A stretch of 64,000 nt of DNA, taken from assembly GCA_024650005.2 (NCBI GenBank), contig CP122380.1, positions 1,088,001 through 1,152,000 on the forward strand, in the 5' to 3' direction. Of the stretch, positions 18,571 to 27,993 are shown piece by piece; the stretch's first letter is position 1; every line of letters begins with the position of its first letter. The notes beneath the pieces are model-generated. The model had not been told where the DNA came from, did no database searches, and was given only the letters and a program-made list of their open reading frames with translations. The stretch is from Candidatus Bathyarchaeum tardum. GTDB taxonomy: Archaea > Thermoproteota > Bathyarchaeia > Bathyarchaeales > Bathyarchaeaceae. Both the position numbers and the translations under genes were made by a program.

Positions 18571-19125
18571 ATGTTCAAAGACCGATATTTTGCACTTTTT
18601 GGGATTATTGGACCAGCTTTCGCAATTGTATTAATATTTGTCGCAATAGGGCTATCACCATGGTTCAGTTGGAGCCAAAATGCATTAAGCGATCTTGGGC
18701 ACTCCGTAAAAAGTGCTGTTGCTCCCCTGTTTAATTTTGGCTTGCTTTTGGGTGGATTTTTCATCATCTTGTATTCATTAACTAGTTTTCGAAAAAATGC
18801 AAAAAAAACTAGTTACTTTTTAGCCTTTACTGGATTGTCGCTTCAGTTCGTCGCTACCTTTGATGAGGTTTATGGGACACTGCATTTTTTCGTTTCAGTT
18901 TTATTTTTTTGTTCGCTAGGTTTCGCCTCAACTAGTTACATTCTTGAGAAAAAATCATCTCTAGCTGCTTTAGCGTTAATTATTGGTCTTGCTTCTTGGA
19001 TACTTTATGGTCTAAGTTTTTTCGAGTCTGGAATTGCTGTTCCCGAAACAATTTCATCGGTTGCAACTACTTCATGGGTCATAAAATCCGCTATACGCCA
19101 ACTAAGTTTGAAACAAGCCGCATAA
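18571..19125 (+). CDS. DUF998-like membrane protein
   Basis: SPWFSWSQNALSDLG motif, several TM segments, LH and PE motifs. Confidence 0.75.
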   Translation: MFKDRYFALFGIIGPAFAIVLIFVAIGLSPWFSWSQNALSDLGHSVKSAVAPLFNFGLLLGGFFIILYSLTSFRKNAKKTSYFLAFTGLSLQFVATFDEVYGTLHFFVSVLFFCSLGFASTSYILEKKSSLAALALIIGLASWILYGLSFFESGIAVPETISSVATTSWVIKSAIRQLSLKQAA

Positions 19126-19235: not shown

Positions 19236-19634
19236 CTAGGATTTCGCTGTTACCGCTTTAACTGGTTTGCTTTGATTATGGTTTTCTGTTCCAATTGGAA
19301 TCCGGTTCAGTCCTATCCTGATTAGTTTACGGCAGATATGGTTTAATGATTCTTCTGTGCCTTTTAGCAGGTTTTTTCCTTCAGGAGTTAGAGAGTACAC
19401 TTTTTTTGGGCGTTCACAGTTTAAATTCCATTGGCTTTCTATGTATCCATTCTCTTCTAGAATGCCAAGCAAAGGATATATTGTACTTGGACCAAAATAC
19501 ACTCCAAAGTTTTTGCGTATGCTTGTAATTATGTTGTATCCATGCATTGGTTTTGTTTTCAAGAATTGCAGTATTACTAGATCAAGAAGGCCTCTCATGA
19601 GTTTTATTTCTACGTCTCTGAGTTTTTCTTTCAT
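19236..19634 (-). CDS. PadR-family transcriptional regulator
   Basis: PMHGYNI, GPSTIYPLL..LE..G and KKVYSLTPEG motifs. Confidence 0.9.
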   Translation of the reverse strand: MKEKLRDVEIKLMRGLLDLVILQFLKTKPMHGYNIITSIRKNFGVYFGPSTIYPLLGILEENGYIESQWNLNCERPKKVYSLTPEGKNLLKGTEESLNHICRKLIRIGLNRIPIGTENHNQSKPVKAVTAKS

Positions 19635-19686
19635 TTTGGCATTCCTGTATTATTGCTCAACAGTTCATCAGTTTTACACGGATACG

Positions 19687-19724
19687 ATATGTACTTTTTA
19701 TGACATATTATCAAATCTTATATA
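19687..19724. promoter_or_regulatory. palindrome ATATGT-N10-ACATAT plus TATATAAGATTTG box (minus strand) upstream of padR
   Basis: Inverted repeat at 19687-19708. The 13-mer at 19712-19724 recurs exactly at 21287-21299. Confidence 0.5.
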
Positions 19725-19867
19725 TGCGGAAACCAGATATAAATCTTCTTGCATCTGCTAAACATAAAAAAGCATATTTGAGCATACGAAAAAAAGTAAA
19801 ATGATTAACAATTTAAATAAATAACATCATCATACTTATCATTTAACTTAACAGGAATCAGAAAAAC

Positions 19868-20215
19868 TTGACTGAAAACCCCAAAAACCAATTTGTTCAA
19901 CGCATAGCCAAAAATTTTCTTGACATATTGATTTTACGGCTCATTCAAACAGAGCCAATGTGGGGCTATAAATTGATAAAAAAAACCAAAACTCTTTTTG
20001 GAATAAAACTACGACACGGAGCCCTATATCCACTTTTAAATAATCTTGAATCAGAAGGATATGCTCAAAGTGAAAAAATAACCATTAAAGGGCGAATACG
20101 AAAAGTTTACTACATCACCCAAAAAGGAACCCAACTCGTTGATGCTTATTATGATTTCCTGAAAGAACAACTAGAAAAATTGGATCTTCAAGAGGAAAAC
20201 AATAATGAAAAATAA
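19868..20215 (+). CDS. PadR-family transcriptional regulator
   Basis: PMWGYKL, HGALYPLL..LE..G and RKVYYITQKG motifs; overlaps the next gene. Confidence 0.9.
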   Translation: MTENPKNQFVQRIAKNFLDILILRLIQTEPMWGYKLIKKTKTLFGIKLRHGALYPLLNNLESEGYAQSEKITIKGRIRKVYYITQKGTQLVDAYYDFLKEQLEKLDLQEENNNEK

Positions 20216-21239
20216 TTCTTCACAAGAAGAAGTTGTTGAACAATTACAAAAGCTTCTTTATGACCGCGGAAACAAAGCCCTAGCACTTGCTCAAAAAACA
20301 ATTCTAGACGAAAAAATCGAATCCAAACCAATTAGAGACGCTCTGCTCTATTTTATCAATGATTATTGGAATGACGTCACCCGCCCTGCTTTACTTTCGT
20401 TAGTCTGTGAATCCGTAGGTGGAGATCCCGACTTGACTACGCCTGTTGGTGTTTCAATGACTTTAATTGCCGGGGGAATCGACATTCATGATGACATTAT
20501 CGATGAATCAAAACGCAAAGACTCTAAATTTACTGTTTATGGAAAATACGGCAAAAAAATTGCTCTCCTAGTTGGAGATGCCCTAATGTTTAAAGGGTTC
20601 ACTTTATTGTATGAGACCCTTGGAAAAGGAATTTCTCCAGACCAGATTGCTACTATGAGCAAAATAATTAATCAAACCTTTTTTGAACTTGGGGATGCAG
20701 AAGCTCTGGAACTTGATTTTCGTACCCGTGAAGATGTAACTCCTGAAGAGTATCTTTCTGTAATTCGAAAGAAAGCAGCAGATGTTGAAGCTCATACTCG
20801 AATCAGCGCCATACTTGGTGGGGCTTCTTCAGATGAAATTGAGGCCCTTGCAGAGTACGGTAGGATATTGGGCATGTTAGTGATTTTACGTGATGAAATG
20901 ATTGATATGCTTGATCCAAAAGAGACAATTCATAGAATAAAAAAAGAGCATCTTTCAATGGCAATAATCTATGCTTTGCAGAATCCTGGTATGAAATCTT
21001 CGATATCTAACTTGTTAAACCAAACACGGAACTTGAAGGATGCTGACAATCTTTCCTTGTTAGTTGATGCTGCAGATGGTTACAGTAAAATGAATGCTTG
21101 TATGCAAAGCTTGGCCAATATTGCTTATAGGAAAATAGAAAACGCTAAGTATAACAAAAATCACTTAGCTTTAATTATTCAAGGGATGCTTCTCCCTGAT
21201 TGGAGAAGTTATTTAACGCCAATAAAGTCGGACAGGTAG
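20205..21239 (+). CDS. polyprenyl-synthetase-fold (class I isoprenoid synthase) protein with degenerate motifs
   Basis: FARM HDDIID, ALLVGDAL and YL..IRKKA present; SARM altered to LRDEMID. Confidence 0.82.
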   Translation: MKNNSSQEEVVEQLQKLLYDRGNKALALAQKTILDEKIESKPIRDALLYFINDYWNDVTRPALLSLVCESVGGDPDLTTPVGVSMTLIAGGIDIHDDIIDESKRKDSKFTVYGKYGKKIALLVGDALMFKGFTLLYETLGKGISPDQIATMSKIINQTFFELGDAEALELDFRTREDVTPEEYLSVIRKKAADVEAHTRISAILGGASSDEIEALAEYGRILGMLVILRDEMIDMLDPKETIHRIKKEHLSMAIIYALQNPGMKSSISNLLNQTRNLKDADNLSLLVDAADGYSKMNACMQSLANIAYRKIENAKYNKNHLALIIQGMLLPDWRSYLTPIKSDR

Positions 21240-21265
21240 TTTCTTCTGCATTTTAATCACGTGTC

Positions 21266-21299
21266 TATATGTTCTACACATATACCTATATAAGATTTG
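21266..21299 (+). promoter_or_regulatory. palindrome TATATGT-N5-ACATATA plus TATATAAGATTTG box upstream of the MFS gene
   Basis: Read directly from the sequence; mirrors the elements upstream of padR 19634. Confidence 0.5.
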
Positions 21300-21408
21300 T
21301 TCAACATATCTACAAAAAACATAATAAATGGATGTAGAATCTGGTTTTATGTTTCTAAATTGTTAATTGTTACGATGTAATCAGTACCTTATGGGCAGTG
21401 CATAGCGA

Positions 21409-22653
21409 ATGCTTAGAACATTCTTAGGTGAAAATACTATCGGCAAAAGAAATTTTCTTGTACTGACCATTCTGTTCTTAAGTGTTTTTGGCTGGTTCTT
21501 TATGACCTTGCCTGTTATTGAACAAATGCTAGGGCCAGATCCTGAATATCAGGTAAATCTTGCTGTCTGGGCTGCATTTTATTTATCGATCATTGGGTCG
21601 AGCATATTAGGTTCTTTGTTTTCACAGAAAATTGGAAAACTTAAATTCATTTATTTGTGGGCTATCCTGGGAGTTGCTGTATCATTTTTGCCTGCAATAA
21701 TTAATACCGCTAGTTTCGAACAGGTTTTTGGGGTTTCTTTGTTTTTGGGTGTCTCTTTTGGTTGGGGTGTGCCTGCATTTTTTGCCTATTTTGTAGAAAG
21801 CACAGTTGTGGAAAACAGGGGGAGAGTAGCTGCAATAACCTTTTTGCTCGCTAACCTTGCTGCTCCATTTCTTTCAATTGTTGCGTCTGAATTTGATTTT
21901 ATGATAGTTACCGTTTTGTTTGCCCTTCTTAGGGGAACTAGTTTGTTCATATTCTTTCTTAAACCCGAAGAACAGCTTTCTTCTGATGTCCCGAAAGATG
22001 TTTCCTTTAGGGAAATTCTAAAAAATCGAACCTTTTTGCTTTATTTTGTTGCATGGTCTATGTTTCCTCTCATTGATAACTTTGAACGAGTTCTTGTAAT
22101 TCCTTTTCTATCCATTAATTATCCCAATTTAGTTAGCGAAATGGGTATTGTTGAACCATTGGTTGCTGGACTTTCTATATTGATTGCTGGAATTTTATGT
22201 GACCGAATTGGAAGAAAAAAAATTGTCCTTTCTGGTTTTGTAGCCATAGGCATTGCATATGGACTGATTGGTATTCTTCATAATATTGAATTCCTGTGGT
22301 ATGTTTATTTCATTGTTGATGCCATTGCTTGGGGAATCTTTTCCTTAATCTTTTTCATCATTTTGTGGGGAGATATTGCCCATACAAAAAACAGCCAGAA
22401 GTTTTATGCCATCGGTAGTATCCCATTTTTTGTTGGTAGCATTTTGCCATACTTATTGCCTTCATCAATAGTTGAAAATATTGAAATTTATGCCACTTTT
22501 TCAGTGGCTAGCCTTTTCTTGTTTGTTGCCGTTATGCCTTTGGTGTTTGCCCCTGAGACTTTGCCTGAAAAGAAAATTGAACTTAGGCGATTGAAAAATT
22601 TTGCTGAAGAAGCAAAGAAAGCTAGAGAAAAGTTCGAACAAAAAAAGAAGTAA
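21409..22653 (+). CDS. MFS transporter
   Basis: About 12 TM segments; motif A (GILCDRIGRK), ENRGR and PET. Confidence 0.88.
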   Translation: MLRTFLGENTIGKRNFLVLTILFLSVFGWFFMTLPVIEQMLGPDPEYQVNLAVWAAFYLSIIGSSILGSLFSQKIGKLKFIYLWAILGVAVSFLPAIINTASFEQVFGVSLFLGVSFGWGVPAFFAYFVESTVVENRGRVAAITFLLANLAAPFLSIVASEFDFMIVTVLFALLRGTSLFIFFLKPEEQLSSDVPKDVSFREILKNRTFLLYFVAWSMFPLIDNFERVLVIPFLSINYPNLVSEMGIVEPLVAGLSILIAGILCDRIGRKKIVLSGFVAIGIAYGLIGILHNIEFLWYVYFIVDAIAWGIFSLIFFIILWGDIAHTKNSQKFYAIGSIPFFVGSILPYLLPSSIVENIEIYATFSVASLFLFVAVMPLVFAPETLPEKKIELRRLKNFAEEAKKAREKFEQKKK

Positions 22654-22663
22654 AAAATAAAGT

Positions 22664-23437
22664 TTAGAATTGTTCGACTTTTGTGGCTATGTTATTTAAA
22701 GTCTCTGTGAATGGATGATCGGGGCGTTCTTCTGAGAATATGAAATTTCCTGCTGCCCGTAGTACTTCGCAGAAACATGGTATTGTTGCTAACACTGGTA
22801 AGCTATGAATTTCTTTGATGCGTTTGTTGAATTTCTTTTCCTCCTCTTTTGAAGATAGGTAATCTGCGATTACTTTGTTGATTAGGATTCCTGTCTTCTT
22901 TTCGAAGAGATCATAAAGTTCATTGGTCATACGTTGGCTGCCGATAATGTCTGATGCATCTAAGCTTGTTACGACTAATACAATATCTGCAGTTACGATT
23001 GCGTTTATGGAAGAATATTGAAGTCCTGGGCTTGTGTCAAAGATTATGTAATCAAAATTGCCTTCGTTAAGAATTGCTGCTCTGAGTGACAGAAGTCTAC
23101 CTAGTGCTTTCATTTCCCATTTTCTGTCTTTTGCGGTCATGTCTCGGATAGCTTCGGTGGTGGGATTTGCTAAGCCTACTGTTAATTTGCCGCCGTTATT
23201 GTGTTGTTTTACGTCCACTAGAACTTTGTCGATTTCGCATACGCCATTAAGGTAATCATTAAGCCAGTGGTCTAGTTTTTCTTTTTTAAATATGGCATGA
23301 AGACTTGGGGCTCGAAAATCCAAATCCATTAAACAGACTTTTTTTCCTCGTCTGGCATATGTAGCTGCCAAGTTTACTGACAGTGATGTTTTTCCAGTTC
23401 CGCCTTTGTATGAATGAATTGCAATTATTTTTCCCAT
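22664..23437 (-). CDS. MinD/ParA-family ATPase
   Basis: Deviant Walker A KGGTGKT, DLDFRAP, DTSPG and INK. Start moved to the ATG at 23437. Confidence 0.9.
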   Translation of the reverse strand: MGKIIAIHSYKGGTGKTSLSVNLAATYARRGKKVCLMDLDFRAPSLHAIFKKEKLDHWLNDYLNGVCEIDKVLVDVKQHNNGGKLTVGLANPTTEAIRDMTAKDRKWEMKALGRLLSLRAAILNEGNFDYIIFDTSPGLQYSSINAIVTADIVLVVTSLDASDIIGSQRMTNELYDLFEKKTGILINKVIADYLSSKEEEKKFNKRIKEIHSLPVLATIPCFCEVLRAAGNFIFSEERPDHPFTETLNNIATKVEQF

Positions 23438-23441
23438 TTTT

Positions 23442-23813
23442 TTATGTCTCCTCTCTGTCAACGTAGAAGTATGCCTTTCGGCCATCTCGTTCTTTTTTCA
23501 TATATCCCATGATCACAAGTTGGTTTAGGTATCCACTTTCTACTGCTCTTGCTCGTTTTGTTTGTTCTGCTACTTCGTCAGCTGTCGCTTTTTCTAGTTT
23601 GCAAAGAGTAACTGCTGTTTTCCTTAGATGATCAGGAAGGGAAAGTAACGTCATTACATCTAGGGCTTCCGGCAAGTTTTCGGGGAGTTCTTTTTGTCCG
23701 TGTTTTTGTATTTCTATCATTACGTCGATTTTATCGTTGAGTTTCTCAAGGTTCTCTCTAATTTTTTCCAGCAGTTGTGTCGATTTTGTGTCTATTTTCC
23801 GGTAAGCTGCCAT
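23442..23813 (-). CDS. coiled-coil + winged-HTH DNA-binding protein
   Basis: ATADEVAEQTKRARAVESGYLNQL...G...ERDGRKAYF; ends 4 bp upstream of the MinD-like gene. Confidence 0.8.
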   Translation of the reverse strand: MAAYRKIDTKSTQLLEKIRENLEKLNDKIDVMIEIQKHGQKELPENLPEALDVMTLLSLPDHLRKTAVTLCKLEKATADEVAEQTKRARAVESGYLNQLVIMGYMKKERDGRKAYFYVDREET

Positions 23814-23990: not shown

Positions 23991-24287
23991 CTAATAAAGA
24001 GATGCAGGCAATTTTGCCTGTCCTTCTTCAACGACAGGTAGCATTACCTTCAATTCTCTGAAGTATTTTAGAACTTTTAATCCCTTTTCTGAAACAACGA
24101 AAACTATCCTTTTCTTGCCAACGGTTTTTTCCTCTACAAGTTCTTGCTCAATGAGGAAATCTAGGTACTCTTTGAGTACACTGCAGTTCACGTTAGCTTT
24201 GTACATGATGTGCGTTAGCTTAAGTGGACCTTTTTGTGATAATACTCTCAGGATATCGATATACATTTCAAGTTTTGACCTTCGCAA
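23991..24287 (-). CDS. winged-helix regulator (HTH_45-like)
   Basis: RRSKLEMYIDIL...THIMYKANVN...YLDFL...SEKG pattern. Confidence 0.85.
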   Translation of the reverse strand: MRRSKLEMYIDILRVLSQKGPLKLTHIMYKANVNCSVLKEYLDFLIEQELVEEKTVGKKRIVFVVSEKGLKVLKYFRELKVMLPVVEEGQAKLPASLY

Positions 24288-24361: not shown

Positions 24362-24556
24362 TTATTCAGTATATACTGTAGATTTTGATTGAATTCTCTG
24401 GAAAACGGTTAATCTATTCTGGAATGCAGTAACCATATCATCGGCCAGAATAGTTTGCAATTCTGGTGTAAGTGTATGGATTTCGTTGGTGAATGTTTCC
24501 ATAATCATTTTTTGTAGCCGTTTTCGGCTTTGAATTGAGCCCAATTTTTCCATCAC
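24362..24556 (-). CDS. small helical hypothetical protein
   Basis: 64-aa ORF with a GGAGA SD, co-oriented with its neighbours. Confidence 0.6.
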   Translation of the reverse strand: MMEKLGSIQSRKRLQKMIMETFTNEIHTLTPELQTILADDMVTAFQNRLTVFQRIQSKSTVYTE

Positions 24557-27264: not shown

Positions 27265-27993
27265 ATGGAAAGCCAAGATATTCCTCAAAGTGATGGTGCA
27301 GCAGAACAAGAAATTATGCTGTTGGAATCTGCTTTGTATGTTGCTGGGTGCCCGTTGGATTTACGAACATTGTGTAATGTTTTAGGAATCAGATCAAAAG
27401 ACAAAGCATTAAAAACAGCCCAAACTCTAGTGGAACAATATAACGCCTATAACGGTTCAGACGTTGTTGGAGCAAAGGTCTGTGTGAACGGAACAGAATG
27501 CGTAACAAACAGTTCAGGGTGGGCAGGTTTTAATGCTTTTTACGTTTCTGCTGGTAAACGAGTATGGACTGTTACAGATTTAACCCATTCAACAGTTACT
27601 GGATACAAGGTTACTGCTGCAACTCCAAATGTGGTTTGGGATTCAATTGTTATTGATGTGGAAGTTTCTGCTACTGCCTTTGGATCAATGAGGTTTACTG
27701 TGAATGTTGTCTCTGGTTATGATTGTCGTTCAGTTACTGGGGCAAAGGTTCTAGCAAATGGAGAAACTTGCACAGAAACCAAACTTGGTGTATATGAAAT
27801 ACAGCTAGGTTCATGGAATTCAATTCAGCAAGTGACCATAGTTGTTGAACGGTTAGACGCCTCCACATGGTTTTCAGGTTCTTTTGATAATTTTTCAAAT
27901 ATTGTCCTGTATGTTGCAGTCGTTGCTACGGTGATTGCTATTAGTATTATTTTTTGGATGCACCACAAGTCCAAAACTATTGAATCGAAGTAG
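27265..27993 (+). CDS. chimeric ORF: ScpB-like N-terminal 60 aa fused to a membrane-anchored beta-rich surface-protein C-terminus (possible pseudogene)
   Basis: LLESALYVAGCPLDLRTLCNVL resembles the ScpB N-terminus. The remainder has duplicated GAKV..NG..C repeats and a C-terminal TM with a basic tail. Confidence 0.55.
   Translation: MESQDIPQSDGAAEQEIMLLESALYVAGCPLDLRTLCNVLGIRSKDKALKTAQTLVEQYNAYNGSDVVGAKVCVNGTECVTNSSGWAGFNAFYVSAGKRVWTVTDLTHSTVTGYKVTAATPNVVWDSIVIDVEVSATAFGSMRFTVNVVSGYDCRSVTGAKVLANGETCTETKLGVYEIQLGSWNSIQQVTIVVERLDASTWFSGSFDNFSNIVLYVAVVATVIAISIIFWMHHKSKTIESK

Follow-up and report, generated by a model that had tools for sequence, protein, structure and literature searches.

Why does a gene of the polyprenyl-synthase fold lie between a pair of PadR regulator genes and a gene for a major facilitator superfamily (MFS) transporter, and what would such an enzyme make there? 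The cassette that raises this question is found in Candidatus Bathyarchaeum tardum (contig CP122380.1, positions 1,088,001 to 1,152,000), in a stretch of 64,000 nucleotides that we call the window and to whose numbering plain coordinates refer; those prefixed C1 refer to the whole single-contig genome. The sequence-only reading of this DNA had proposed a synthase-exporter-sensor unit for an isoprenoid, possibly feeding an adjacent regulator/MinD block. The unit and its link to a MinD/helix-turn-helix (HTH) pair are supported by our analysis, but the co-variation of a conserved micro-gene with enzyme and transporter makes a prenylated peptide a likelier product than a free isoprenoid. Going by sequence comparisons, we give somewhat better than even chances to the whole reading, in which the enzyme prenylates the micro-peptide, a matched MFS protein transports it, and signalling runs via MinD/HTH with a PadR1 branch. 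That the micro-peptide is the enzyme's substrate appears probable, and so, provided that it is, does a signalling role.

A micro-gene opposite the enzyme gene

The four genes proposed earlier stand at the positions given for them: padR1 (19236–19634, − strand; PF03551, E 4e-16) and padR2 (19868–20215, + strand; PF03551, E 2e-15), both encoding small PadR-family regulators, the enzyme gene (20205–21239, + strand), which overlaps padR2 by 11 nt, and the MFS gene (21409–22653, + strand; PF07690). The enzyme has the fold of a trans-type isoprenyl diphosphate synthase (trans-IDS) and matches PF00348, below all NCBIfam cut-offs. What had been overlooked is a fifth gene on the opposite strand. Aligning the gaps between enzyme and MFS genes revealed a conserved antisense start, which in the window opens a precursor-peptide gene of 12 codons, MQKKLPVRLYWR, read from 21251 to 21213 (−), tail-to-tail with the enzyme gene and sharing its last 27 nt.

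To survey this gene we took 91 distinct enzyme open reading frames (ORFs) of at least 280 aa with at least 150 nt downstream (from loci L004–L133) and a strict rule, by which an antisense ORF had to have a basic N-terminus, contain P[VIMTFL]R and end in an aromatic tail. The motif was present in 61 of the 91 loci, as opposed to 6 of 2730 shuffles and 0/91 sense-strand controls. Another 13 loci pass a long-ORF rule (10 from a distant clade, and 3 main-clade peptides read from upstream starts), and a looser peptide rule takes in nine more. Among the 61 strict peptide genes 58 start with ATG, and 53 are preceded by a Shine-Dalgarno (SD)-like word, a count made without a control. Of the 61, 37 have no overlap with the enzyme gene, and between them they draw on every Pro codon (four) and every Arg codon (six); as the rule itself dictates Pro and Arg, the information lies in the spread over synonymous codons. 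Main-clade precursors are 12–20 aa long and rich in Lys and Arg, and their ends vary greatly, with 56 different tails among 61 peptides, 53 of them containing Trp. In the window Trp stands at position 11 of 12. These counts establish the conservation and codon pattern of the 12-codon gene, the expression of which is predicted. A scan of the genome for further motif-bearing micro-ORFs gave 11 rows, two of which are the cassette gene; the remaining rows found no support, with two of their neighbourhoods inspected.

As the strict rule was devised after loci had been inspected, we tried it on new loci outside the class. With a limit of E 1e-55, a phylum-wide search found the enzyme in 41 of 301 genomes and yielded 20 loci outside the class, 19 of them with downstream sequence. 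In held-out family f24, a methanogen family from another class, the rule picked out a peptide in 10 of 14 loci; in the remaining four the peptide is the same except that another residue stands in place of Pro, and one of these is interrupted by a run of N. Peptide genes occur as tandem copies in 5 of the 14 loci (L169, L170, L171, L176 and L187), where a near-identical pair lies head-to-tail 3′ of the enzyme gene, each copy with an SD-like word. All three f24 genomes tested carry mcrA, and the names attached to relatives of the f24 enzyme are Ca. Methanosuratincola, a genus from which an isolate has been cultured (PMC12244365), or Methanomethylicaceae. These Methanomethylicia peptides are weakly cationic. 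Enzyme, peptide, MFS, MinD and HTH genes occur together in 12/12 long-flank Methanomethylicia loci, and the PadR pair is absent from those 12. The PadR genes are an add-on of Bathyarchaeia, and the MinD-like ATPase/HTH pair is more widely linked.

The distant clade encodes longer precursors, with an antisense ORF of 53–93 aa bearing W or Y within its last five residues in 10 of 12 loci. Seven long peptides gave no meaningful Pfam match and none to ComX (PF05952). In this paralogue clade (L034–L046) the precursors look helical, lie beside MFS and MinD genes, and often have KaiC-like ATPases and a geranylgeranyl-reductase-like enzyme nearby.

A remodelled enzyme in an exchangeable module

The structure model of the enzyme (pLDDT 90.8) has the trans-IDS fold and matches the Pyrococcus horikoshii geranylgeranyl diphosphate (GGPP) synthase (PDB 1WY0; query TM-score (TMq) 0.81, 22% identity) as well as the Trp prenyltransferase Ord1 (TMq 0.67–0.74), with sequence matches of 6e-36 to 1WY0 and 5e-25 to Ord1. 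Archaeal IdsA (NF040698; 1WY0) is the nearest family and fold, from which the cassette enzyme differs by a lost isopentenyl diphosphate (IPP) site: it scores 125 against the IdsA cut-off of 468, and GKxxR, ExxH, RRG, KT and QxxDD are all missing at the aligned positions. [quoted passage not shown] Among 191 main-clade enzyme sequences, to which all residue counts refer, D96, D97, D100, E169, D234 and R244 are invariant and K105 and K190 are kept in 189. At the IPP site, Gly has become Trp55 in 182 and Lys has become Asp57 in 178, and D93 has been gained in 188. By the motif scheme of PMC10108439, as far as its available part sets it out, loss of the IPP motifs means that no chain elongation would take place.

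A canonical IdsA, keeping GKxxR, ExxH, RRG, GQxxD, KT and QxxDD, is encoded elsewhere in the same genome (C1:39107–40108), beside genes that by sequence appearance alone resemble mevalonate kinase, isopentenyl-phosphate kinase and type-2 isopentenyl diphosphate isomerase. The cassette linkage is conserved: among main-clade loci with enough flank, the MFS gene lies 3′ in 73/77, padR2 5′ in 55/71 and a divergent padR1 in 46/65. The enzyme gene is thus neither the genome's sole candidate for GGPP synthesis nor without conserved linkage, the two outcomes that would have spoken against the sequence-only reading, and a conserved producer-transporter-regulator unit distinct from housekeeping GGPP synthesis is supported. 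The genome holds two IDS-fold genes besides the cassette enzyme, namely idsA and C1:1705981–1707036, the latter of which adjoins his genes and keeps GK and RRG with KT and the SARM context altered. The cassette enzyme is matched at E 1e-50 or better in 35 of 61 related genomes, and in a species-wide scan the best 80 of 292 relatives were, by title, mostly from Bathyarchaeia, with a few from Hadarchaeota, Baldrarchaeota and probably mis-binned records.

Across 38 four-gene loci, mean identity to the window falls from 68% for PadR1 and 63% for PadR2 to 49% for the enzyme and 38% for the MFS protein, the most variable in the cassette; MinD and HTH, where present, average 65% and 71%. ComQXP of Bacillus shows the same order, with the enzyme and its partner more variable than the regulators (PMC4008528, available part). 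In pairwise distances over 37 loci (one tandem copy dropped from the 38), enzyme and MFS are correlated at rho 0.72, as opposed to 0.08 for PadR with enzyme and 0.18 for PadR with MFS; the enzyme-MFS partial correlation is also 0.72 and was reached by 0/500 permutations. Ten loci with mostly Tyr-type tails, named as a group once the trees had been inspected, form one clade in both the enzyme tree (a quick tree; Shimodaira–Hasegawa-like approximate likelihood ratio (SH-aLRT) 99) and the MFS tree (FastTree; 100). On the PadR1+2 tree the same group needs five changes and its clade is rejected (approximately unbiased test, p-AU 4e-35).

Contigs of a close strain were found in two runs that probably represent one strain. 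These diverge from the window by about 3–8% in enzyme and MFS pieces, and by 0–1% in the MinD/HTH pieces of run X2. In the stretch 21120–21251 five of six differences fall within peptide codons 8–10, giving a silent Arg change, Leu to Tyr and Tyr to Phe while Pro, Val and Trp are kept; such clustering arose in 9 of 200000 chance trials, for a stretch chosen afterwards. Enzyme, peptide type and MFS have been exchanged as one module, independently of the flanking PadR genes, and the cassette shares with ComQXPA quorum sensing a polymorphic module of specificity.

Fold comparison of the MFS protein gave only generic MFS matches (13–18% identity), and a sequence search of solved structures gave none. 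A TIGR04084 radical SAM/SPASM gene lies near 23 main-clade loci, mostly directly 3′ of the MFS gene (e.g. L047:4448–5578), and a geranylgeranyl-reductase-like gene near 8 loci; the window genome's TIGR04084 homologue (60%) lies elsewhere, at C1:903010–904125. In proteins of about 500 aa an N-terminal half-enzyme is joined to a complete enzyme of another type, and some loci have two enzyme genes in tandem (P0001, P0002, P0003, P0006 and P0008; loci L075, L104, L123 and L125). Both arrangements may be traces of module replacement.

Promoter boxes and regulators

The upstream regions of padR1 and the MFS gene had been said to share DNA motifs. The shared words are there, TATATAAGATTTG (13 nt) and TAAATTGTTAAT (12 nt), with a 13-nt shared word arising in 1/500 shuffled pairs and one of at least 12 nt in 5/500. 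The 13-mer was rejected as the conserved element: on the MFS side it is a TATA stretch, and relatives have not conserved it upstream of padR1. What the two regions have in common is a conserved 17-nt box, TGTWGAACA-N4-TACA. One copy lies directly 5′ of the padR1 start (19646–19662; matrix score 15.1), and an inverted pair (21262–21278 and 21298–21314; scores 17.3 and 21.9) flanks a TATA-like stretch (21287–21294) in the putative divergent peptide/MFS promoter (21262–21314). The pattern recurs in 30 of 47 padR intergenic regions and 59 of 79 main-clade peptide/MFS loci. With a matrix trained on cassette loci, the window included, intergenic matches genome-wide numbered 22, 12 and 9 at three thresholds, against shuffled means of 6.6, 1.9 and 0.4.

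The box also scores at least 13 upstream of 20 of 48 HTH-minD operons (0/960 shuffles), in Bathyarchaeia mostly about 35 nt 5′ of the start. In the window these two genes follow the MFS gene on the − strand: the MinD/ParA-like ATPase gene, a candidate signal-transducing partner, at 22664–23485 (likely start 23437) and the TrmB-like HTH gene at 23442–23813 (PF01978, E 9e-6). The MinD-like ATPase gene is linked in 9 of 10 long-peptide loci. In five Methanomethylicia genomes searched, close PadR1/2 orthologues and the exact PadR-type palindrome described below were not found, and the box is retained in 5 of 14 Methanomethylicia peptide promoters. PadR2 is therefore disfavoured as binder of the box, the TrmB-like HTH protein is the better candidate, and PadR1 is probably a downstream layer.

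That layer would act through the operator ATATGTC-N8-GACATAT, of which the window copy (19687–19708) has one mismatch. At two or fewer mismatches the genome has five sites, all before genes, with 0–2 in five shuffles; they precede padR1, its 63% paralogue (C1:221132) and three paralogous small proteins. Of 61 genomes, 40 contain the exact palindrome, against 0 for a reversed control; these comprise 33 of 35 with a main-clade enzyme and 7 of 26 others, although related genomes do not count as independent cases. Among 30 operator loci that were retrieved, 17 sites precede padR1-type genes and 2 membrane-protein genes, and 11 could be assigned to neither. We predict that the palindrome in front of padR1 is a likely binding site for PadR1 itself. 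LmrR and the PadR-s2 proteins are of similar size, and the ATGT-N10-ACAT repeat at padR1 fits their ATGT/ACAT motif spaced by 8–10 nt (PMC3506622, available part); the cassette PadRs differ from LmrR in having no equivalent of Trp96 and in a palindrome that is not at the MFS promoter. The earlier suggestion that a PadR protein senses the ligand directly gains little from this comparison, as PadR1 has Leu at the C-terminal-helix Trp of the solved PadR-s2 protein 4EJO and the PadR2 C-terminal helix, read from sequence because the alignments end before it, contains no Trp.

The two operator motifs define a small predicted regulon. Five small proteins in the genome share a hydrophobic helix at the N-terminus together with a His/Cys cluster (C1:600235–600609, 1804543–1804965 and 1968045–1968416, our loci L164–L166, and paralogues at 869080–869424 and 1519517–1519762); three of the five carry both the palindrome and the 17-nt box upstream. 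The PadR1-target membrane proteins match no Pfam family, and the Atlas gave unnamed Bathyarchaeota clusters only.

A proposed mechanism and its competitors

We propose that the enzyme would ionise geranyl, farnesyl (FPP) or geranylgeranyl diphosphate supplied by the housekeeping IdsA. The conserved Arg in P-[VI]-R may be held by D57 and D93, acidic residues in place of basic or polar ones of the IPP site, and the held Arg could place the aromatic residue two to three positions on as the acceptor (Trp11 here, Tyr in one clade). The MFS protein would export the lipopeptide and may re-import it. The product is probably a lineage-specific signal read via the neighbouring MinD-like ATPase/HTH pair, and at three promoters (peptide/MFS, HTH-minD and padR1) the HTH protein is expected to bind the 17-nt box and so to close a feedback loop. 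In Bathyarchaeia PadR1 would form a downstream layer, using the palindrome to control its own gene and those of three small single-helix membrane proteins.

ComQ/ComX of Bacillus (ComQXPA; ComQ family IPR033965) is among the closest parallels, likewise pairing a trans-IDS-fold enzyme with a short precursor that has Trp near its C-terminus and a hypervariable tail, and the long antisense precursors of the distant clade resemble ComX itself (PMC4008528, available part). The cassette differs in being archaeal, in a main-clade precursor of 12–20 aa on the opposite strand, in its dedicated MFS protein, in Tyr-only tails in one clade, and in the MinD-like ATPase/HTH pair and PadRs that replace ComP/ComA. 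It also lacks the Gln before SARM, described in the available part of PMC13290415 as the Trp-recognition determinant of ComQ, PalQ, ChrP and Ord1. That position is Ile227 in the window enzyme and I in 135, L in 27, V in 8, S in 8, T in 7 and G in 3 of the 191 enzymes. Among the recurring neighbours there is no linked histidine kinase with response regulator; HATPase_c matches number 12 elsewhere in the genome and none in the window. Because both the Gln and a linked kinase are absent, the enzyme is not a ComQ member. PalQ, the ChrPC P-domain and Ord1 have in common with the cassette the fold, a kept FARM and a Trp-bearing candidate acceptor, and they share a Gln-Asp indole-binding network (PMC13290415, as available) that is missing here; section 2.4 of that source has all characterised trans-IDS-like peptide prenyltransferases modifying Trp. 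Class membership among Trp prenyltransferases thus fails, and the working principle may still be shared. The cassette enzyme is likely a peptide prenyltransferase of ComQ/ComX-like kind, as predicted from its sequence and setting. The better score of archaeal IdsA over Ord1, which is a comparison of scores and not of branches in a tree with these proteins, suggests that the cassette enzyme was recruited independently of the PalQ/ChrPC/Ord1 type.

Several observations weigh against this reading. The Trp-recognition Gln is not among the commonest residues at its column, 8 of 61 tails have Tyr without Trp, and one peptide (locus L029) has a tail without any aromatic residue. No peptide was found under our filters in 8 of the 91 loci, and in families f39 and f47 the enzyme lacks a matching peptide gene behind it in 5/5 loci; the enzyme in those loci (L178–L182) is remodelled in the same way, and neither an MFS of the cassette type nor MinD lies close by. 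The strict motif is post hoc, as is the Tyr group, and the loci are related, so counts are not independent. Close-strain tail differences also fall in the last codons of the enzyme. Only 15 of 38 main-clade loci have MinD/HTH adjacent, the box at the HTH promoter of the window itself does not reach a score of 4, and no peptidase or histidine kinase is found among the recurring cassette neighbours. The enzyme also combines disrupted IPP motifs with kept FARM and SARM, as IDS-type terpene synthases do in Table 1 of PMC10108439.

This last point bears on an explanation that follows the sequence-only reading. In it, an IDS-type terpene synthase or a prenyl diphosphatase would make a small isoprenoid signal, and the micro-peptide would only regulate the enzyme or the MFS protein. 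Insect IDS-type terpene synthases derive from eukaryotic FPP or GGPP synthases, and their systems are not known to include a peptide partner or transporter. Their likeness to the cassette enzyme lies in kept FARM and SARM, disrupted IPP motifs and K to D in IPP-binding motif 1 (IBM-1); loss of IPP motifs including this change, with aromatic residues in IBM-1, is a signature of the insect, here coleopteran, enzymes (PMC10108439, available part). The missing Gln and the five loci without an adjacent peptide gene suit it as well, and reductase neighbours suit any prenyl product, but it leaves unexplained the variable aromatic tail behind a conserved Arg, the ComX-like long precursors of the distant clade, and the exchange of enzyme, MFS and peptide type as one set. 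We regard it as unlikely, and as slightly less likely than an antimicrobial role, which is itself doubtful. In the latter the prenylated product would be a cationic, Trp-rich, membrane-active lipopeptide, a ribosomally made peptide with post-translational modifications (RiPP), with MFS export or self-protection and immunity from the PadR1-controlled membrane proteins. Lys/Arg-rich peptides with Trp tails, tandem precursor copies and a SPASM maturase-type neighbour in 23 loci are in keeping with this, prenylation boosts the activity of membrane-active peptides (PMC13290415, available part), and module swapping would also suit toxin-immunity units. It fits poorly with a fixed chromosomal site, an ATPase/HTH pair conserved in two classes, a shared promoter box, and the weakly cationic Methanomethylicia peptides.

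It is improbable, a step below both of these, that the IDS-fold protein serves as a receptor for the imported peptide, perhaps together with a prenyl diphosphate, and passes the signal on to PadR2 or MinD. A receptor would account equally well for the co-variation with peptide and MFS, the gene overlaps padR2, and SARM is degenerate in the long-peptide clade; the near-invariance of both Asp-rich motifs and three basic diphosphate residues in the main-clade sequences argues against it. A second chain-elongating prenyl diphosphate synthase with incidental neighbours would account for GGPP and polyprenyl synthases being the top family and structure matches. With a score so far below the IdsA cut-off, five motifs missing and a canonical IdsA already in the genome, we consider it very improbable.

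Prenylation of the micro-peptide followed by signalling could amount to archaeal peptide quorum sensing with swappable specificity groups, Trp/Tyr prenylation of an Arg-anchored peptide without the Gln, movement by a matched MFS protein, and an intracellular MinD/HTH switch with a PadR cascade, independent of ComQ, common to Bathyarchaeia and Methanomethylicia methanogens and using an enzyme derived from archaeal GGPP synthase. We put this fuller interpretation forward tentatively, at rather less than even chances. In the literature we searched on archaeal quorum sensing, prenylated peptides and RiPPs, most subscription papers being outside the search, we found no description of the cassette. 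The available part of a 2025 paper counts three earlier true archaeal examples of quorum sensing, has one gene (filI) empirically tied to it and names no peptide signal (PMC12240190), and a census detected comQXPA in Firmicutes only (PMC4008528). A complete gene set and a proposed substrate of 12 residues make archaeal peptide signalling directly testable, and the cassette enzymes may extend the chemistry of peptide lipidation.

Other genes flank the cassette in the window. A DUF998 membrane gene (18571–19125) is convergent with padR1 and lies beside the cassette in 14 loci. Beyond the HTH gene, the region of 23991–24287 and 24362–24556 holds an HTH_45/Sso10a-like gene preceded by a conserved 64-aa ORF; of its paralogues, at least 11 in this genome, two carry the 17-nt box upstream. 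Further along, an ORF at 27265–27993 has no Pfam match; its first 55 or so residues presumably resemble the start of ScpB, and its later part is an unrelated segment like that of a surface protein.

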